Numbered from the stretch's first letter, positions 4,158 through 64,000 are shown. The stretch: 64,000 bases of DNA from an uncultured Actinomycetes bacterium (GCA_963736295.1 CAVTOH010000002.1:145822-209821), one strand, 5' to 3'. Translations and numbers: made by a program. Notes: generated from the letters alone by a model not told the origin.

Positions 4158-5189
4158 ATGGCCGAGGCCCTTGTCACGACGGTCGTCGGGAGCTACCCCC
4201 AGCCGGAGTGGCTGATCGACCGAGAGCGGCTCGGCGAGCGGCTGCCCCCGCGCGTGCGGGCGCGTGAGCTCTGGCGGGTGGCGGAGCAGTACCTCGAAGA
4301 GGCTCAAGACGATGCGACTCGGCTCGCGGTCTCCGACATGGAGCTGGCCGGCATCGACGTCATCACTGACGGCGAGATGCGGCGCGAGAGCTATTCCAAC
4401 CGCTTTGCGACCGCGCTCGAGGGCGTCGACCTCGACACCCCGGGCATCGCCCTCGATCGCACCGGCCACGAGAACCCCGTGCCCAAGGTGATCGGCCCGG
4501 TACGCCGCACGCGCCCCGTCGAGGTGCGGGACGTCGAGCTCCTGCGCGCCATGACCGACCGTCGGATCAAGATCACCGTTCCGGGGCCGTTCACGATGAC
4601 GCAGCAGGCCCAGAACGACCACTACCAGGACGAGCGGAGCCTTGCGCTGGCCTACGCAGAGGCGGTGAACGAGGAGCTGCGCGATCTCAAGGCCGCCGGA
4701 GCGGACGTCGTCCAGATCGACGAGCCATACCTGCAGGCGCGTCCCGAGCCCGCGCGTGAGTACGCCGTCGAGGCGATCGATCGTGCTCTCGCGGGAATCG
4801 AGGGCGAGACGGTGCTCCACACCTGCTTCGGGTACGCGCACATCGTCCACGACCGGCCCGACGGCTACCCGTTTCTCCGCGAGCTGAACGAATGCGCGGC
4901 CACGCATCTGTCGCTCGAAGCCGCCCAGCCGGATCTCGACCCGGAGGTCCTGAGCGATCTCCCGGACAAGTCCATCGTGTTCGGCGTCCTCGACCTGGGC
5001 TCGAGCGAAGCCGAGACGCCGGAGGTCGTCGCCGAGCGGATCCGGAGAGCGCTCGCCGTGGTTTCCCCGGACAGACTCGTCGTCGCGCCGGATTGCGGGA
5101 TGAAGTACCTGTCGCGGGAGCTCGCGTTTCGCAAGCTTCGCGCGCTGGTGGCCGGTACGCAGATCGTGCGCGGGGAGCTGGGCCTCTGA
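4158..5189 (+). CDS. Cobalamin-independent methionine synthase, catalytic-domain-only (MetE C-terminal domain family)
   Basis: VGSYPQPEWL, ITDGEMRRESY, Zn-ligand motifs HTCFGY and APDCGMKY. About 343 aa, as in short archaeal-type MetE. Confidence 0.8.
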   Translation: MAEALVTTVVGSYPQPEWLIDRERLGERLPPRVRARELWRVAEQYLEEAQDDATRLAVSDMELAGIDVITDGEMRRESYSNRFATALEGVDLDTPGIALDRTGHENPVPKVIGPVRRTRPVEVRDVELLRAMTDRRIKITVPGPFTMTQQAQNDHYQDERSLALAYAEAVNEELRDLKAAGADVVQIDEPYLQARPEPAREYAVEAIDRALAGIEGETVLHTCFGYAHIVHDRPDGYPFLRELNECAATHLSLEAAQPDLDPEVLSDLPDKSIVFGVLDLGSSEAETPEVVAERIRRALAVVSPDRLVVAPDCGMKYLSRELAFRKLRALVAGTQIVRGELGL

Positions 5190-32602: not shown

Positions 32603-32675
32603 TGCGCCCGGGAGGATTCGAACCTCCGACCCGCGGATTAGAAGTCCGCCGCTCTGTCCACTGAGCTACGGGCGC
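32603..32675 (-). tRNA. tRNA-Arg (anticodon TCT)
   Basis: Reverse complement folds as GCGCCCG-TA-GCTC..GAGC-G-GCGGA-CTTCTAA-TCCGC-..-GGAGG-TTCGAAT-CCTCC-CGGGCGC-A. Confidence 0.9.
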
Positions 32676-35026: not shown

Positions 35027-35099
35027 GCGGGCGTAGCTCAGTTGGTAGAGCGCCAGCCTTCCAAGCTGGATGTCGTCGGTTCGAACCCGGCCGCCCGCT
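35027..35099 (+). tRNA. tRNA-Gly (anticodon TCC)
   Basis: GCGGGCG-TA-GCTC-AGTTGGTA-GAGC-G-CCAGC-CTTCCAA-GCTGG-..-GTCGG-TTCGAAC-CCGGC-CGCCCGC-T. Confidence 0.9.
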
Positions 35100-36613: not shown

Positions 36614-36687
36614 TCGGGGTGGCCGGATCTGAACCGGCGGCCTCCCGCTCCCAAAGCGGGCGCTCTACCAGGCTGAGCTACACCCCG
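36614..36687 (-). tRNA. tRNA-Pro (anticodon TGG)
   Basis: Reverse complement folds as CGGGGTG-TA-GCTC-AGCCTGGTA-GAGC-G-CCCGC-TTTGGGA-GCGGG-..-GCCGG-TTCAGAT-CCGGC-CACCCCG-A. Confidence 0.9.
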
Positions 36688-56349: not shown

Positions 56350-56742
56350 CTACTGGATCTGTGTCTCGCAGTGCGCGTTGAAGGTGTCGGTCCCGGGGCC
56401 TCCGATGCAGACGTCGATACCGCTGTTGCCGTTCAGACGGTCGTTGCCGGCACCGCCCACGAGGCAGTCGTTCCCCGACGCACCCACGAGGTTGTCGTTG
56501 CCGGCCGTACCGAGCACGAGCGATGGCTGGTTCCCGCCCCCGCCACCACCCCCAGACCGAATGGTCGTCAGGTTCAACGCTGCGCACTCGGGCGGCTTGA
56601 GCTGGTTTGCCGTCGGCGGCGGGCCGACGCCCGAGCCCGCATTGCTCTGCGGGACGATGTTCGTCGCGGTCGCCACCACTCCCAGCAGCAGGACGAGCGC
56701 CGCGGCGACGAGCAAGGCACGAGCGAGGCCGCGGAGCACCAT
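56350..56742 (-). CDS. Small exported protein with an ANIVPxSxAGxGxG N-terminal motif and three GNDxL-type Gly/Asp repeats
   Basis: TM/signal MVLRGLARALLVAAALVLLLGVVATA, then TNIVPQSNAGSGVG. C-terminal GTAGNDNLVGASGNDCLVGGAGNDRLNGNSGID. Starts 5 nt after the peptidase gene stop. Confidence 0.65.
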   Translation of the reverse strand: MVLRGLARALLVAAALVLLLGVVATATNIVPQSNAGSGVGPPPTANQLKPPECAALNLTTIRSGGGGGGGNQPSLVLGTAGNDNLVGASGNDCLVGGAGNDRLNGNSGIDVCIGGPGTDTFNAHCETQIQ

Positions 56743-56747
56743 GCGCG

Positions 56748-58325
56748 TCAGCCCGGCTGGACGAGCGTGTCCTCGAGATCCGGCGAGCGCGTCGGAAGCG
56801 AGGTCGGGCCCGTGCGGAAGCGATACGCCGTCGACCCGTCGTCGACGAAATAGACGTGCTCCGCTCCGTTCCGCCACTCGAGCACGACGCGGTCGTGGAG
56901 CTCGGAGATCCGCACGAGACCCTCGAGGTCAGCGAGATCCGTCACGACTCGCGAGCGGAGGTCGGGGGGACGCGCGATCGAAATCAACCGGTCGCCGAGC
57001 AGCGAGGCGATCCGGACGTGCTCGCTGTCGCGACGCCGGCCCGAGACGACCACGGCAGCCAGGGCAAGAAGGAAGAGCGCGATCACGAGACCGACCGCCG
57101 AATATCGCCTCGCCTGCTCGACGGCCAGCGACACCGGGCCAAGCCCCAGACTCGTGGGAACCTCGACGGTGCCGGTCTCGGCCTGTTGCGCCGACAGTGC
57201 CGGCGTCGTTCCGTCGCCCACGTCGACGCGGAGGGAGACGTCGTCCAGGAGGAACGGGACCTGGGAGGTGAACGTGTCCGAGAAAGCCTTGGCACCGTCC
57301 CGTCCGGACACCTCGACCGTGGGCTCGAGGCGCACCGAGAAGGTCGTCGTGATCGCGCCGGTCAGACTCTTCATCTCCGCGACGATCGCGGACAACTCTT
57401 CGAGGTCGAGGGTTCCCTCCGTCGTCACGCTCTGACCGGTGAACGGCTGCGGATCGGCGACCTGGAAGGTCCGCAACCAGCCTGCGCCGTCCGACACGAC
57501 GGCCGAGATCGAGGACTCGCCGTGGACGGCGGAGGGCTCGTCAGCGGAGAACCGATACGCGAAGGCCACGTCGAGCGCTGGGACGAGCTGGAGGAACGCG
57601 GTCTCGCCGGAGCGCACGACCCCGTCCGGGTAGACGTCACTCGGCGTCACCGTTGCGCCGTACGAGAGCGTGCCGCGGTGCACGCGCGCCTCGTCGACCT
57701 TCTCGTTGCGAACCGGTGAGCGCGAGAACGCTGCCAGTGCGAGCAGGCCGAAGAGGCAGGTCGCGATGAGAGCCGCCGTGAGCAGCCCACGCAGCGCGCC
57801 GTCGAAGTACGTGCCGGGAGCGGTGATCGCGAACGCGTGCCGCGGACGAGTGCGACGCCTCGCGGCGCCTCCGCCGCCCGCAAGGGCGAGGCCGGCGAGC
57901 ACGAACACGACGATTGCCGCGTGCAGCGGCTGTTGCGCCCATTCGATCGCCGAGCCGACGCGCGGAACGGAGAACCAGAGCGTGCCGCCCAGCTCCTCCG
58001 CGGTGGGGCGGATCTCGTCGAGGTAGTCGTTGTTGTCGCCCTTGAGGACGAACCGCTCGCCGTTCGCTCGAACGATCCTGTGAAGCACGTCCACCCCGAG
58101 GCGGGGGTGGCGATAGAGGGCGACCTTCCCCACATCCGCCTCGCCGCCCGCGCGAACGATCGCGAGGTCACCGTCGACGAGCGAAGGCGACATGCTCGTC
58201 CCGTCGATGATCGCGTAGCGGGCCGGCCCACCAAGCTCGGCGGGGCCGAGGAGGAACCAGCCTGCCGCCGCGACCACGGCGACGAGGCTGATAGTGACCA
58301 CCCGGCTGACGGAGATGCGGCCCAT
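56748..58325 (-). CDS. ER/archaeal-type (SipW-like) signal peptidase I domain fused to a large two-TM extracytoplasmic domain and a cytoplasmic tail
   Basis: S26 boxes IDGTSMSPSL (Ser), VLHRIV (His), LKGDNNDY. Then TM, ~300-aa Ser/Thr/Val-rich domain, TM (VGLVIALFLLALAAVVV) and ~100-aa C-terminal region. Confidence 0.75.
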   Translation of the reverse strand: MGRISVSRVVTISLVAVVAAAGWFLLGPAELGGPARYAIIDGTSMSPSLVDGDLAIVRAGGEADVGKVALYRHPRLGVDVLHRIVRANGERFVLKGDNNDYLDEIRPTAEELGGTLWFSVPRVGSAIEWAQQPLHAAIVVFVLAGLALAGGGGAARRRTRPRHAFAITAPGTYFDGALRGLLTAALIATCLFGLLALAAFSRSPVRNEKVDEARVHRGTLSYGATVTPSDVYPDGVVRSGETAFLQLVPALDVAFAYRFSADEPSAVHGESSISAVVSDGAGWLRTFQVADPQPFTGQSVTTEGTLDLEELSAIVAEMKSLTGAITTTFSVRLEPTVEVSGRDGAKAFSDTFTSQVPFLLDDVSLRVDVGDGTTPALSAQQAETGTVEVPTSLGLGPVSLAVEQARRYSAVGLVIALFLLALAAVVVSGRRRDSEHVRIASLLGDRLISIARPPDLRSRVVTDLADLEGLVRISELHDRVVLEWRNGAEHVYFVDDGSTAYRFRTGPTSLPTRSPDLEDTLVQPG

Positions 58326-58382
58326 TGCTGGCCCCGGAGGGAGTAGGGCGGAGCGTCTGTTCCGCCCTACTCGAGATCCGGG

Positions 58383-58763
58383 TTACTGGATGGCGATCAC
58401 CCGCAGCTGGTCCACGGAGAGGACCGTCGGGTCGGGCTCGACATTGCAGCTCCAGCTGTTGCCGCCGGTGTTCGTGCAGTCGGTGAAGGTGCCGCTCGCC
58501 GCGACGAGCTTCGCCTTGACCGTTCCGGCCGGCCCATTGAGATCGAACGAGACGCTCTCGATGTTCGCCGGGTTTAGCGAGTCGAGCTGGTACGCGATGT
58601 TGGACACCGTGTATCCGGTGATGGCACCTGTGCCATCGCCAGCCTGCGAGCCAGGGACGATGTTCGCGGCCGTGAAGGCGTACGTTGCAAGTGCGAGTGC
58701 GCCCGCAGCGACGAGCACGATGACCATGCGCCGCCGCCGACGGCGGTCGTAAGTTCCAGCCAT
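58383..58763 (-). CDS. Small exported protein with an ANIVPxSxAGxGxG N-terminal motif (candidate cognate substrate of the adjacent peptidase)
   Basis: RRRRRR-TM (MVIVLVAAGALALATYAF), then TAANIVPGSQAGDGTGAITGYTVSNIAYQL. AAGGAG Shine-Dalgarno before ATG 58763. Confidence 0.65.
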   Translation of the reverse strand: MAGTYDRRRRRRMVIVLVAAGALALATYAFTAANIVPGSQAGDGTGAITGYTVSNIAYQLDSLNPANIESVSFDLNGPAGTVKAKLVAASGTFTDCTNTGGNSWSCNVEPDPTVLSVDQLRVIAIQ

Positions 58764-58895: not shown

Positions 58896-60256
58896 TCAGC
58901 CCTCGAGAGCTGCGGGCAACAAGGCGAGAAGGTCGCTCGCGACGAGACCCGCGCGATGCGGGGCGAGCAGCGCGGCCCGCGCGTGTGCGACCGCGGCGGC
59001 CGCTGCGGCGAGCTGGGGCTCGAGGCCCTTCGCGAGGAACGAGGCGACGACCCCGGTGAGCACGTCACCGGTGCCGGCAGTCGCGAGCGACGGCGGGCCG
59101 AGGTCGCTGACGATCACGCCCGCGGCGGGTGCAGCGACGATGGTGTCCGGCCCCTTGAGCAGGACGACGGCCCCGAAGCGGTCGGAGGCGGCTCGGACTG
59201 CTTCGAGGCGGTGCGCGTCCACCCACCCCGCGTCGCTGTCGAGGAGACGCGCCAGCTCGCCCGCGTGCGGCGTGAGCACGAGCGGCGCCTGCCGCTGCAC
59301 CGGGTGCAGCGCGTACAGGCCGTCCGCGTCGACGACTGCCGGCAGCGCGAGGTCTTCGAGCAGGGTGCGGACGAGCTCCGCGCGGCCCGCTCCCCGCCCG
59401 AGGCCGGGGCCGATCGCGAGCGCGCCGGCACGCTCGGCAGCAGCAGTGATGGTCTCCAGCAGCGCTGGACCGCGCTCCAGCCGATCTTGACCGGCTCGAG
59501 CGCGATCGCCTCCGCGGCTGCCAGCGACTCCTCGGGTACGGCCAGCGTGACGTAGCCCGCGTCGGCCCGCATCGCGGCGAGCGCCGTCAAGCAGGCCGCG
59601 CTCGTCATGCCGGGCTGACCGCCGACGACGAGGACCGAGCCGGCGCTGTACTTCGTGTCACCCTCGACGCGCCGCGGGACGAGGCCGAGGAGCTCCCGGG
59701 TCGCGCGCCTGCCCTCGGTCGGAAGCTCGTCGAGCCCGATGTCCACGACGACGACCGTGCCTGCGTGGAACCGGCCCGGCGCGACGACGTGGCCGACCTT
59801 GAGCGCGTGGAACGTCACGGTCAGATCGGCCTCGACGGCGACAGCTGCGACCTCTCCGGTGGAGGCGTCGACACCGGAGGGAAGATCGACGGCGACGACC
59901 GGGGCCGCCGCGCGGTTGATGCGGGCGATGAGCTCGGCTGCCTCGGGGCGCGGCTCACCATGGAAGCCGGTGCCGAAGAGCGCGTCGATTACGACGTCGT
60001 AGCCGTCGGGCTCTGCCGCCTCGTCGGCGACGTGACCCGCCTCGCGGAGCACGCGTGCCGCAACTCTGCCGTCACCACCGTTCGAGCCTCCGCCGCAGAC
60101 GCAGGCGAACCGCCGTGCTGCCGGATACGCGAGCATCGCCTCTCGGGCGACCGCGGCGCCTGCCCTCTCCATCAGCTCCGGCACGGAGGCTGGGTAGCCG
60201 GGATACCGCTCCTCCGCGGCGCGCATCTCGGCGGCGGTGTAGAGCGGCTCGAACAT
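58896..60256 (-). pseudogene. nnr: Bifunctional NAD(P)H-hydrate repair enzyme Nnr (epimerase + ADP-dependent dehydratase), one frame change near 59467-59482
   Basis: YjeF_N part (CVCGGGSNGGDGRVAAR, DALFGTGF, VDLPSG) and the start of the carbohydrate-kinase part (KYSAGSVLVVGG) are in ORF 59114..60424. The remainder (ALAIGPGLG...TPHAGELARLL...VLLKGPDT...TAGTGDVLTG) is in the frame of ORF 58896..59300. Confidence 0.85.
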
Positions 60257-60261
60257 CGGGG

Positions 60262-60621
60262 CTACTCGCGCGGGGAGACGACGCAGATCGCCGCCGCGAT
60301 CTCCCGGGAGTGGGTCATCGAAAGGTCGATCGGACCTGCCTCCACCTTCTCTGCGAACGCGGCAGTGCGGCCGGTCAGCTGCACACCCGGCTTCGGGCGT
60401 CCGACGATCTCGACGTCCTTCCACGTGAAGTTGATGCCGCAGCCGAGCGCCTTTCCGACAGCCTCCTTCCCCGCGAAGCGGGCGGCATAGCTCTGTGCGG
60501 GATCGGCACGAGAGTCGCAGTACTCGCGCTCGGCGGGCGTAAAGCAGCGCTCGCGGAAACCGTCTCTGAGCAGCGCTTTCCGGATGCGCTCGATCTCGAT
60601 GATGTCGACGCCAACCCTCAC
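60262..60621 (-). CDS. acpS: Holo-[acyl-carrier-protein] synthase
   Basis: VGVDIIEIERI...FTPAEREYC...AARFAGKEAVGKALG, 119 aa. GTGA overlap with the upstream gene. Confidence 0.9.
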   Translation of the reverse strand: MRVGVDIIEIERIRKALLRDGFRERCFTPAEREYCDSRADPAQSYAARFAGKEAVGKALGCGINFTWKDVEIVGRPKPGVQLTGRTAAFAEKVEAGPIDLSMTHSREIAAAICVVSPRE

Positions 60622-61901: not shown

Positions 61902-63467
61902 GTGGACGCGGTCAAACTGGCCATGCTGCTTCCGGCGTTGCCGAGCGAGCGGACGCACCTGCTCGACAACCTCGGACAGGTGCGGCGCGAGGTCGGCCCG
62001 ATCACGCCGGAGCTGTCGGACGCGCTCGCCGACCACATGAACATCAGGCGAGGCGAGGTGCACGAGGTGGTTTCCTTCTACTCGTTCCTGCAGGTCCCGA
62101 TCGACGCGATTCGCGTCTGCACCGGGCCGGTGTGCGACTGCTTCGGCGCCCGGGAGCTCCTCGAGCGAACGCCTGGTGCGATCGAGGTTGCGTGCCTCGG
62201 GCACTGCGACCTGGCACCGGTCTACACGCGCGGCGACGAGATCTTCCCGAGCGTGACGCATGCGGCGAACGACGGCCCGGCGACAGGGCTCGGTCGCCGT
62301 GACGAGACCCTTTCGGACTACGAGGCACGGGACGGACTCGCCGTACTGCGCGACCTGCCCTCCTCGGATCGGGTCGTCGAGGAGCTGAAAGCGGCAGGGA
62401 TCACGGGCTTCGGGGGCGCCGGTTTCCCGACCGGCATCAAGTGGGAGGCGGTCTCACGAGAGCCCGCTCCGCGCTACGTCGTCGTCAACGCGGACGAGGG
62501 CGAGCCGGGGACGATCAAGGACCGCTACGTCATGGAGCTCCGGCCCCACCTCTTCATCGAGGGCGTCCTGATCGCGATGGGCTTCGCTGAGGCGGAGCAC
62601 GGCTACATCTACCTCCGCGAGGAGTACGCGACAGCTCGCTCGAGGCTCCGGCAGGCGATCGACGAGTTCAGCGCGGCCGGGCTGCTCGACGGGCGCACCC
62701 TCGAACTCGTCATCGGCGCCGGCGCGTACATCGCCGGCGAGGAGACCGCGATGCTCGAGTCGATGGAGGGGCGTCGCGCAATGCCGCGGCTGCGTCCTCC
62801 GTTCCCCGCACAGGTCGGCTACCTCGGGAGACCGACCTTGATCAACAACGTCGAGACGCTCGCGCACATCCCGTTCATCCTGCGGCATGGCGGAGAGGCA
62901 TGGGCTGCTCTCGGGACGCGGGGCTCATCTGGTACCCGGCTGTGGTCGATCTCGGGCGCGGTCGCGAGACCGGGCTGCTACGAGGCACCGATCGGGAGCA
63001 CGGCCCGCGAGCTCGTCGAGGGCTACGCGGGTGGCTTCGTCGGCGAATTAGGAGCGGTGGTGCCCGGAGGGGCGGCGAGCGGGATCCTGCCTCCGTCGGC
63101 GCTCGACGCTCCGCTCACGCGCGACGGGCTGCAGGAATACGGGGCGGGGCCCGGCTCGGCTGCCGTCCAGGTGTTCCCGGCGTCGTACTCGCCGCTCAGG
63201 CTGCTCGCGGAGACGATGCGCTTCTTCGCAGAGGAGTCGTGCCAGAAGTGCACGCCGTGCCGAATCGGAAACCGAGCGCTCCATCACGTCTGCGTCGAGC
63301 TCGAGCGCGGTGAGGCGGCGATGACGCGCGAGAAGATCGACGAGTGGCTCCTCGCGATGGAGAAGACGTCGATCTGCGGTCTCGGCCAGGCGTCGCCGTT
63401 CCCGGTGCGGAACGCGATGCGCTGGTGGCCCGAGCTGTTCGCTCCGCTAGGGGCCGTTCCCGACTAA
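61902..63467 (+). CDS. NuoE-like [2Fe-2S] thioredoxin-fold domain fused to NuoF-like NADH/FMN/[4Fe-4S] domain
   Basis: NuoE-type Cys pattern (CTGPVCDC...CLGHCDLAP). NuoF motifs GFGGAGFPTGIKW, VVNADEGEPGTIKDR, ESCQKCTPCR and a distal CGLGQ. No other nuo genes in the window. Confidence 0.85.
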   Translation: MDAVKLAMLLPALPSERTHLLDNLGQVRREVGPITPELSDALADHMNIRRGEVHEVVSFYSFLQVPIDAIRVCTGPVCDCFGARELLERTPGAIEVACLGHCDLAPVYTRGDEIFPSVTHAANDGPATGLGRRDETLSDYEARDGLAVLRDLPSSDRVVEELKAAGITGFGGAGFPTGIKWEAVSREPAPRYVVVNADEGEPGTIKDRYVMELRPHLFIEGVLIAMGFAEAEHGYIYLREEYATARSRLRQAIDEFSAAGLLDGRTLELVIGAGAYIAGEETAMLESMEGRRAMPRLRPPFPAQVGYLGRPTLINNVETLAHIPFILRHGGEAWAALGTRGSSGTRLWSISGAVARPGCYEAPIGSTARELVEGYAGGFVGELGAVVPGGAASGILPPSALDAPLTRDGLQEYGAGPGSAAVQVFPASYSPLRLLAETMRFFAEESCQKCTPCRIGNRALHHVCVELERGEAAMTREKIDEWLLAMEKTSICGLGQASPFPVRNAMRWWPELFAPLGAVPD

Positions 63468-63491
63468 TCCCGGGTCGCCAACGCCCAGCGT

Positions 63492-63524
63492 CTTAACAAT
63501 CGGTGTCAGACACCAATTGTTAAG
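63492..63524. repeat. 16-bp near-perfect inverted repeat (hairpin) upstream of the Y1 transposase
   Basis: CTTAACAATCGGTGTC-a-GACACCAATTGTTAAG (one mismatch). AT-rich, in a local GC trough. Confidence 0.6.
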
Positions 63525-63592
63525 TGCATCGAGACTGCGTCAATCGATCCACGGGAGTCCGATTCTCAACTCGCGCTCCGTACGGTGGCTGC

Positions 63593-64000
63593 ATGGGGCG
63601 ACCGGCGCGAGACTTCACTCCCGGAGGGATCTACCACCTCTACGCCAGGGGAAGTAATCGGCAGTCGATCTTCACATTCGACTCCGATCGCATCGACTTC
63701 CTCGATTGCCTCGATCACGTGGTGGGAGCAAGCGGACTGACCTGCCTCGCCTACTGCCTCATGGCTAACCACTACCACCTCGTCGTCCACACGCTCGACG
63801 GGGACGTCTCGAAAGCAATGAAGGGGCTGAACGGTCGGTACGCACTCCGCTTCAACCGACGGTACAACCGCGATGCACACGTGTTCAAGAACCGCTTCGG
63901 AGCGGTCAGACAAACGACCGAGCCTCAGCTTCTCTGGACGCTTCGGTACACGGTCATGAATCCTGTCCGAAGCGGTCTCTGCGGCTCCCCGGACGAGTGG
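63593..64000 (+). mobile_element. IS200/IS605-type Y1 (HUH) transposase, REP-associated tyrosine transposase (RAYT)-like; runs off the window
   Basis: My own translation of the + frame from ATG 63593: MGRPARDFTPGGIYHLYARGSNRQSIF...CLAYCLMANHYHLVVHT (HUH)...RYNRDAHVFKNRFGAV...LRYTVMNPVRSGL (catalytic Tyr motif). It is not in the supplied ORF track, which does list an antisense ORF here (63566..63913 -). Visibly lower GC than the neighbours. Confidence 0.8.

Follow-up and report, generated by a model that had tools for sequence, protein, structure and literature searches.

Why does a block of housekeeping genes also hold a gene for a signal peptidase, set between genes for two small proteins that appear to be exported? 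This question is raised by three genes, here called A, B and C, in a stretch of 64,000 nucleotides from an uncultured Actinomycetes bacterium (GCA_963736295.1 CAVTOH010000002.1:145822-209821). This whole stretch is referred to as the window, and positions are counted from its first letter unless another locus is named. The genes lie co-directionally on the minus strand between nnr and alr: gene A (58383..58763) encodes a predicted exported protein of 126 amino acids, gene B (56748..58325) a membrane protein of 525 amino acids, and gene C (56350..56742) a predicted exported protein of 130 amino acids. By analogy with characterized systems, we consider it somewhat more probable than the reverse that the three genes are dedicated to the processing and assembly of a surface polymer, as a module comparable in function to the tapA-sipW-tasA operon or to the archaeal taf gene clusters.

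Gene B encodes a divergent signal peptidase fused to DUF5305

The N-terminal part of B carries a signal-peptidase domain that is predicted to be extracytoplasmic (residues ~28-133; 57927..58244, minus strand), with the boxes DGTSMSP, LHRIV and LKGDNND. A preliminary description of the locus had recognized GTSMSP, HRI and KGDNN as boxes of a Ser/His-type enzyme, and this was borne out by an alignment of 20 homologues reaching down to 30% identity, in which Ser44, His82, Asp97, Asn99 and Asp103 were invariant and no conserved Lys was present. SipW and Sec11 (family S26B) are of the Ser/His(/Asp) type, and LepB-type enzymes use a Ser/Lys dyad. The invariant Ser, His and Asp residues, together with the lack of a conserved Lys, therefore indicate that B is of the same type as SipW and Sec11.

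Profile searches pointed to a distant member of this group. The N-terminus of B matched the Pfam model Peptidase_S24 above its cut-off (1e-6), and a profile of the B family matched human SEC11C and SEC11A at 4.5e-10, its best relatives of solved structure. However, the match to TIGR02228 (sigpep_I_arch; 4e-10, 39.7 bits) remained under the cut-off of 51.85 for that model, and the SipW equivalog NF046067 reached a score of 19 where 190 is required. By these profiles, B is thus a divergent member of the ER/archaeal-type signal peptidases and not a SipW equivalog.

The remainder of B had previously been described as an ectodomain, a second transmembrane (TM) segment and a tail that could not be assigned. 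The fusion was confirmed, and the fused module proved to be DUF5305: PF17231 matched residues 285-503 over nearly the full model, at 5.6e-13 and 49.3 bits against a cut-off of 29. The number of TM segments had to be revised, as the hydropathy profile contains four TM-like segments (~9-27, 134-152, 178-200 and 408-428). The DUF5305 module (residues ~178-525; 56751..57794, minus strand) comprises TM3, an ectodomain of residues ~201-405 that is bracketed by TM3 and TM4, TM4 itself, and a cytoplasmic tail of residues ~430-525. The cytoplasmic loops are basic and obey the positive-inside rule. The implied topology is an N-terminus inside, the peptidase outside, a short loop inside, the DUF5305 ectodomain outside, and a tail of ~95 residues inside. 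Nearly all of the 142 B homologues that were found contain the peptidase and DUF5305 as a pair, and most of them have a precomputed PF17231 match.

The papers found to mention DUF5305 all concern fibre systems (PMC11821415, PMC12337348, bioRxiv 10.64898/2026.01.04.697558). In Haloarcula hispanica, the DUF5305 protein TafG is the partner of the dedicated peptidase TafD, and deletion of tafD left TafA unprocessed and abolished the Tat-fimbriae (PMC11821415). B has the architecture of TafG-type proteins, namely a TM segment, an ectodomain, a second TM segment and a cytoplasmic domain, beside a dedicated signal peptidase (SPase). In AbpX loci, where DUF5305 occurs with SPase I, it was read as an SPase I accessory, and an SPase-DUF5305 fusion from Anaerolinea thermophila was cited in support of that role (bioRxiv 10.64898/2026.01.04.697558). 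Such a fusion had also been noted in some bacteria (PMC11821415). Published work thus already includes the fusion, but not its neighbours A and C: no description of either family was found in the literature on TasA, Chloroflexota and donor strands or on SipW and Actinobacteria.

A and C share a conserved N-terminal module

Proteins A and C have in common a hydrophobic leader, a cleavage site of small residues and the sequence [T/A]-A-x-N-x-V-P-x-[S/T]-x-A-G, in line with the earlier observation that both small proteins carry the same motif behind their leaders. In A, the cleavage region and motif span residues 29-46 (AFTAANIVPGSQAGDGTG; 58626..58679, minus strand), and in C residues 23-40 (VATATNIVPQSNAGSGVG; 56623..56676, minus strand). 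Family statistics were computed from 316 unique sequences for A and 172 for C, and positions are counted from the first candidate cleavage bond. No other part of either family is as strongly conserved as the motif, and its agreement is far beyond chance. A hidden Markov model (HMM) of the A family alone detected the N-termini of the C family (E ~2e-5), which argues that the shared module is homologous and not a coincidence. In a six-frame translation of the 64-kb window, a loose regular expression found no other genuine instance.

Upstream of the first candidate bond, position -3 is A/T in the A family and mostly G/A in the C family, position -2 is Y/F in A and mostly V in C, and position -1 is Ala in 80% of both families, with Gly (19%) in A and Val (16%) in C as the common alternatives. 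Position +1 is Phe in 87% of the A family and L/A/V/F/I in the C family, and +2 is T/A in both. Ala at +3 is nearly invariant (94% in A, 96% in C), and is followed by a +4 position that is variable in A and T/A in C. The motif proper then has Asn at +5 (99% and 89%, respectively), Val at +7 (87% and 92%), Pro at +8 (80% and 84%), S/T at +10 in both families, Ala at +12 (93% and 72%) and Gly at +13 (100% and 66%). In addition, the A family has T at +6 and the C family R at +11. Past +13, the A family continues as D-G98-x-G-x-[I/V]-[S/T]-G98-Y92, in which the numbers are percentages.

The (-3,-1) rule is satisfied at two bonds, which are in register between the A and C families. The first candidate lies directly after the A/G at -1 (A29|F30 in A, V23|A24 in C); the other comes after the invariant Ala that precedes the Asn by two residues (A32|A33 in A, A26|T27 in C). 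With either bond, N-x-V-P-x-S-x-A-G would lie in the mature protein, and cleavage two to five residues before the invariant Asn is likely, so that the motif would form the mature N-terminus. Scission within the motif, at S-x-A|G, was also considered, as this bond has a canonical look (Pro at -5, Ser at -3, Ala at -1). However, ~25% of the C family has V, L or I at the motif Ala, which makes this unlikely, and 29% has D/E at the Gly. The earlier proposal that the motif could be the recognition or processing site is thus refined, since the scissile bond is unlikely to lie inside it.

The motif had also been described as distinct from the classical TasA/camelysin signal. Consistent with this, neither A, C nor any of 34 A-family members matched an NCBIfam model of the SipW-cognate signal class (TIGR04088-type). 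Yet the TasA-type junction reads T-(W/Y)-A|A-F, and the (A/T)-(Y/F)-A|F junction of A resembles it, by eye only.

A is a small sandwich protein and C an RTX protein

Protein A consists of a basic n-region (RRRRRR), an h-region of 17-18 residues, the conserved N-terminal motif and a predicted beta-sandwich of ~75 residues. In an AlphaFold2 (AF2) model built from an alignment of 34 sequences, residues 5-31 form a helix, residues 31-48 have a per-residue confidence (pLDDT) below 50, and residues 50-126 form a six-stranded sandwich with a pLDDT of ~90. The low-confidence stretch coincides with the motif, so that in the model of the monomer the motif has no structure. When three copies of mature A were joined head to tail and modelled by AF2 from a single sequence, the pLDDT was 46, and a mean-field direct coupling analysis of motif and sandwich with 307 A-family sequences was dominated by C-terminal gap artefacts. 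The mature protein is not acidic-rich (8 D/E in 97 residues). Its conserved Cys pair, C96 and C106, would fit an extracytoplasmic location.

Across 34 members, the A family could be assigned to no family of Pfam or NCBIfam, even with the threshold relaxed to E<=10, and a sequence search of the PDB with A gave no match. Besides 98 close homologues, a profile search of 1.84 billion representative sequences yielded 1,802 clusters (50% identity, E<=1e-3), almost all of 115-135 amino acids. By sequence, A therefore represents a large protein family without a Pfam or NCBIfam model.

The leader of A differs between lineages. In Gaiellales, 5-7 Arg residues precede the hydrophobic core (58728-58745 in the window, residues 7-12 of A), and the Chloroflexota homologues have none. 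Lineage-specific export by the twin-arginine (Tat) or the Sec route has been reported for archaeal Tafi pilins, and the difference in A could have the same meaning. The Tat model TIGR01409 gave a weak match (E=1.4) in one of the 34 A-family members.

Protein C, of which 878 homologues were found, begins with a leader and the shared motif. These are followed by the conserved segment PTANQLKPPxCAAL, a run of Gly and approximately four RTX repeats, and the protein contains four conserved Cys residues. The repeats, of the GGxGxD calcium-binding type (56380..56511, minus strand), matched the HemolysinCabind model PF00353 with E=1.2e-12 and 48 bits against a cut-off of 23, with the best stretch at residues 78-111 and conserved G/D/C columns. 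The GNDxL repeats reported earlier for one of the two small proteins are thus RTX repeats. As C has an N-terminal leader and no C-terminal type I secretion signal, it is an RTX protein by its repeats only. The previous remark that A and C both end in IQ is true in the window; however, this is coincidental, since the C-terminal CETQIQ is conserved in the C family and the last residue of the A family varies (Q/S/E/D).

The cassette is conserved across two phyla

To follow the cassette beyond the window, one genome per GTDB species was scanned, which yielded 237 loci with B-like proteins, and the best 80 of these 237 were analysed. They belong to Gaiellales, Solirubrobacterales, Acidimicrobiia and several classes of Chloroflexota. 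Judged by these homologues, the window itself would derive from a Gaiellales-like member of Thermoleophilia. Neighbours were counted by HMM searches of the flanks in loci with enough flanking sequence. Of 75 loci, 73 had an A-like open reading frame (ORF) as the immediate upstream neighbour of B, and 46 of 73 had a C-like ORF downstream of B. When the search was started instead from five proteins of the A family, B and C were adjacent in all five cases. The association of motif-bearing proteins with the fused peptidase, which the preliminary description had put forward from a single locus, therefore recurs elsewhere.

In Gaiellales-type loci, the order acpS-nnr-A-B-C-alr(-cca-methyltransferase) is repeated, with alr 60-77% identical. 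The same gene order across Gaiellales shows that, in this group, the cassette has its ancestral location between nnr and alr and is no recent arrival, contrary to the initial view of an insertion that interrupts a housekeeping block. Sequence composition is unbroken across A-B-C in this region of ~70% GC. In Chloroflexota, the three genes occur in contexts unrelated to the nnr/alr block.

A number of natural variants were found among these loci. Solirubrobacterales have a 136-residue variant of A and lack C. In L083 (2275-7523), three tandem A genes lie on one strand with B and C divergent on the other, and tandem duplicates of A also occur in L009, L046 and L051. In L088 (4512-6184), the peptidase (168 amino acids) and DUF5305 (389 amino acids) are encoded by separate, overlapping genes, as in archaeal TafD/TafG, and L086 (4390-4914) encodes a peptidase of 174 amino acids without DUF5305, with A, C and the Gaiellales synteny kept. 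Four Anaerolineae/Chloroflexia loci (L070:5959-8310, L054, L061 and L065) have an EAL domain, of the cyclic di-GMP (c-di-GMP) phosphodiesterase type, at the C-terminus of B (Pfam, 1.5e-54). This fits a cytoplasmic C-terminus and suggests that the tail of B is tied to c-di-GMP signalling in those lineages. Thus, in the genomes compared, the linkage of A, B and C holds across two phyla and through rearrangement, gene fission, fusion and loss of DUF5305, in agreement with a dedicated SipW/Sec11-type peptidase encoded with two motif-marked exported proteins.

Fusions were also seen among the products of A and C. In two metagenomic proteins, P0387 (615 amino acids) and P0432 (532 amino acids), A-type sandwiches alternate with modules of the C type (PPxC and RTX), and the leader and N-x-V-P motif are present at the extreme N-terminus only. 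Two apparent B-C fusions, P0061 (686 amino acids) and P0115 (659 amino acids), were rejected as true fusions, as the leader of C is retained in them and the junction of P0115 looks out-of-frame; they are probably read-through or assembly artefacts.

Some further genes were seen beside the cassette. L083 is a richer locus, of a kind also seen in L084 and L085: its cassette is bordered by genes for a LuxR-type response regulator and a histidine kinase, and by two small genes without an assignment. L061 is one of the two loci without A; there, a small antitoxin-like ORF and a 140-residue ORF resembling a PIN-type toxin (both by eye) lie at 4425-5079, upstream of B, with ~870 nucleotides without an A-like ORF between this pair and B.

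A stem-loop follows gene A

Between A and B, directly after the stop codon of A, the sequence can form a stem-loop (58333..58382, minus strand), with an inner 12-bp GC stem at 58341-58372 and an outer stem at 58333-58382. RNAfold assigned it a folding energy of -35.6 kcal/mol (z=-6.4), and its outer stem overlaps the G-run upstream of the ATG of B. GC hairpins of unrelated sequence are found 3' of A in most relatives. Hairpins with a stability beyond the 5th percentile of control windows followed A in 52 of 73 loci, B in nine of 77 and C in two of 47, which is the pattern expected where the product of the first gene is needed in large excess. A scan for sigma-70 and terminator consensus sequences gave nothing useful in this GC-rich region.

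Comparison with known fibre systems

The tapA-sipW-tasA operon of Bacillus subtilis consists of three genes, with an ER/archaeal-type Ser/His peptidase in the middle and its two dedicated substrates on either side: a major fibre subunit, and a minor protein that has the same N-terminal element and nucleates assembly. The A-B-C cassette likewise has three genes with the peptidase between two small exported proteins. Unlike SipW, the peptidase of the cassette is fused to DUF5305 and has four TM segments, and the order of the genes is major-peptidase-minor if A is taken as the major subunit. The predicted sandwich of A has ~75 residues, compared to ~230 for the TasA jelly roll, without sequence or Foldseek similarity between them, and where the operon has TapA, the cassette has an RTX module as its putative minor protein. 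The hosts also differ, being Thermoleophilia and Chloroflexota.

The haloarchaeal taf clusters resemble the cassette in other respects. They combine a dedicated S26 peptidase with a DUF5305 protein (TafD/TafG), as separate genes like those in L088, and encode small exported subunits with a common N-terminal element, which in taf is the assembly strand; one of these, the tip or initiator TafC, has a different C-terminal domain. Natrinema Tafi pili are assembled by strand donation (PMC12337348), and TafC and TapA have been proposed to supply the first donor strand (PMC11821415). Unlike in taf, the peptidase and DUF5305 are fused in B, the candidate subunits are unrelated in sequence to TafA, TafE and DUF1102, the cassette has only three genes without TafB or TafF homologues, and a Tat signal is not established.

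AbpX fibrils share with the cassette an SPase I with DUF5305 and a link to calcium: their assembly depends on Ca2+ (bioRxiv 10.64898/2026.01.04.697558), and C has repeats of a calcium-binding type. In addition, bacterial AbpX-type loci are linked to c-di-GMP enzymes (bioRxiv 10.64898/2026.01.04.697558). However, A is smaller, not acidic-rich and has another motif, and calcium binding in the cassette would be placed in a separate RTX subunit. A parallel has also been drawn with the eukaryotic signal peptidase complex, in which a membrane-bound catalytic subunit works with accessory membrane modules (bioRxiv 10.64898/2026.01.04.697558). The catalytic domain of B is closest to SEC11A/C among solved structures. 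That complex serves general housekeeping, in contrast to B, which is encoded next to two proteins for which it is presumably specific. DUF5305 is an analogue, rather than an established homologue, of the accessory subunits.

A proposed mechanism and its alternatives

Taken together, these comparisons suggest how the cassette could work. A and C would cross the cytoplasmic membrane by means of their N-terminal leaders, probably through Sec, with Tat as a possibility for the Arg-rich A proteins of Gaiellales. The outward-facing Ser44/His82/Asp domain of B would then cut the leaders two to five residues before the invariant Asn, and thereby expose a common mature N-terminus, ...N-x-V-P-x-S-x-A-G-x-G, in both proteins. 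This N-terminus may mediate assembly, most probably as a strand that one subunit donates to the next, and A would polymerise as the abundant major subunit. C, with a putative RTX beta-roll, could be a calcium-dependent minor subunit with a function like that of TapA or TafC, at the tip, in nucleation or as an anchor. As in the TafD/TafG pairs, the DUF5305 part of B may be an accessory platform for the peptidase, and the cytoplasmic tail may couple its activity to intracellular signals, which would be c-di-GMP where EAL is fused. Finally, the hairpin after A could set a high A:B:C expression ratio.

Export of both proteins, as the scheme presumes, is predicted from their conserved Cys pairs, the RTX repeats of C and the modelled sandwich of A with its unpacked motif. 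The occurrence of A-type and C-type domains in the single chains P0387 and P0432 also counts in favour of the scheme, and the EAL fusions of B point to a signalling link of the biofilm type.

Several observations weigh against this scheme, however. The sandwich of A is small and was confidently modelled as complete without the motif, and the internal A-like domains of P0387 and P0432 lack the motif, suggesting that the fold would not obviously need a donated strand. Past its first 8 residues the motif is Gly-rich, which is atypical of a donor strand. A Foldseek search of the PDB with the A model gave a best E-value of 0.05, for a generic Ig-like fold, and nothing at E<=0.001, and no TasA, AbpA, Taf or chaperone-usher pilin entry was among the best 50 matches. 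In HMM searches at E<=10, none of the 34 A-family members matched Peptidase_M73/TasA, DUF1102 or the SipW-cognate signal. As the modelled fold and the profiles of A both fall outside the TasA superfamily, we regard the cassette as possibly working like the TasA and taf systems, and not as a member of them. C is missing in Solirubrobacterales and DUF5305 in one lineage, so neither is essential. The fixed place of the cassette in a housekeeping block in all Gaiellales could mean that its role belongs to the core envelope and not to an accessory fibre. Lastly, both cleavage and polymerisation are steps that we infer from sequence and from analogy.

Many of these points would be accommodated if B were a specific peptidase for A and C that builds no fibre, the chief alternative, which we think unlikely yet worth serious consideration. 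The motif would then be a specificity or handover signal on the P' side, recognized either in the groove of the peptidase or by the ectodomain of DUF5305. Once mature, A and C would function in the envelope as monomers or in association with the wall; they might be, for instance, a surface factor that binds Ca2+ and a small protein with a sandwich fold. A sandwich that is complete without the motif, internal A-like domains that lack it, the absence of fold or sequence similarity between A and known fibre subunits, and a position beside alr throughout Gaiellales all agree with such a role. It explains less readily why the motif is the most conserved part of A and C and reaches ~20 residues past any plausible cleavage site, which exceeds what signal peptidases are known to read. 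Moreover, the hairpin after A suggests the stoichiometry of a structural subunit, A paralogues occur in tandem as in multi-pilin loci, and all characterized loci with a dedicated SPase and DUF5305 build filaments.

Considerably less probable, in our estimation, is that A and C keep their leaders as uncleaved signal anchors and dock by the juxtamembrane motif on the DUF5305 ectodomain of B to form a membrane complex, with the peptidase acting on other substrates or only conditionally, as in regulated release. The long h-region and the modelled helix of residues 5-31 in A would suit an anchor, as would the Val at the first candidate -1 position of C in the window, and the EAL fusions and tail architecture of B suggest regulated rather than constitutive activity. 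Against this, -1 is Ala or Gly in 99% of the A family and -3 is small, as in cleaved signals, and both families have a second canonical site, provided by the invariant Ala two residues ahead of the Asn; in addition, dedicated peptidases of the SipW/TafD type cleave the products of neighbouring genes (PMC11821415). That A and C are type IV pilin-like or archaellin-like proteins processed by a prepilin peptidase, with B incidental, is effectively refuted and retains only a very slight probability. Both are short proteins with an N-terminal hydrophobic helix, and a JGI record names the A homologue P0132 a 'FlaG/FlaF family flagellin'. However, there is no class III signal (G|F-x-x-x-E) before the hydrophobic stretch and no match to a pilin or archaellin HMM, genes for a prepilin peptidase, assembly ATPase and platform protein are absent from all loci examined, and the linkage is to an S26-type peptidase.

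With a dedicated processing and assembly module as the favoured reading, a more specific proposal can be made, which we advance tentatively and hold to be possible rather than probable: the A family may form a very thin surface fibre, not seen before, of monoderm soil bacteria (Thermoleophilia, Acidimicrobiia, Chloroflexota). Its unit would be a sandwich of ~75 residues with a fold unrelated to TasA, joined into a polymer through the invariant N-x-V-P-x-S-x-A-G-x-G N-terminus, with an RTX protein as cap or nucleator. The SPase-DUF5305 protein would exert control through its cytoplasmic tail (EAL-fused in Anaerolineae), which would gate processing by c-di-GMP. Such a fibre would mean that assembly on a cytoplasmic membrane had been solved independently and in a minimal form, with three genes. 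If A polymerises, a major structure would thereby come to light on the surface of Gaiellales, Solirubrobacterales and Anaerolineae, abundant and poorly cultured lineages of soil and sediment whose envelopes are almost unstudied. The cassette would then also offer a three-gene system for chaperone-free assembly and for DUF5305 function.

The locus is also of value for the peptidase itself. A dedicated SipW/Sec11-type peptidase with DUF5305 has been tied to fibres only recently, in archaea (tafi, AbpX), and the bacterial fusion has so far been mentioned only as a curiosity. In the cassette, this fusion stands in a bacterial context that is defined, minimal and very widespread, with two candidate substrates, one of them from a large unmodelled family, and a sharply conserved N-terminal motif. 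Loci with split genes, SPase alone, EAL fusions or multiple pilin-like genes provide natural genetic experiments.

Genomic context in the window

Pfam searches of the flanks identified acpS and nnr (YjeF_N + Carb_kinase) on one side, and alr, a gene of the PolyA_pol/CCA family and a methyltransferase gene on the other. Together with the ORFs, this agrees with the earlier description of three co-directional minus-strand genes within an acpS-nnr/alr-cca block. Each gene had been credited with its own Shine-Dalgarno site; this is correct for A, which has a good AAGGAG 7 nucleotides 5' of its start, and B and C are preceded by weak G-runs only. The ATG of C lies 5 nucleotides past the stop codon of B. 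The open frame of C reaches further upstream, to a GTG at 56877 (56350..56877), and the ATG at 56742 was favoured by the N-termini of homologues.

A few minor observations concern the rest of the window. The neighbouring nnr gene (minus strand, ~58896-60262) seems to be split by a single frameshift near ~59470-59480, as positions 1-44 of the Carb_kinase model fall in one frame and the remainder in another that runs to a stop at 58896; either nnr is a pseudogene here or the break is an error of sequencing or assembly. The GC content falls from ~0.70 to ~0.60 in the last 750 bases (63250-64000). Four tRNA genes, at 1536-1608, 32603-32675, 35027-35099 and 36614-36687, are the sole Rfam matches in the window at the gathering threshold.

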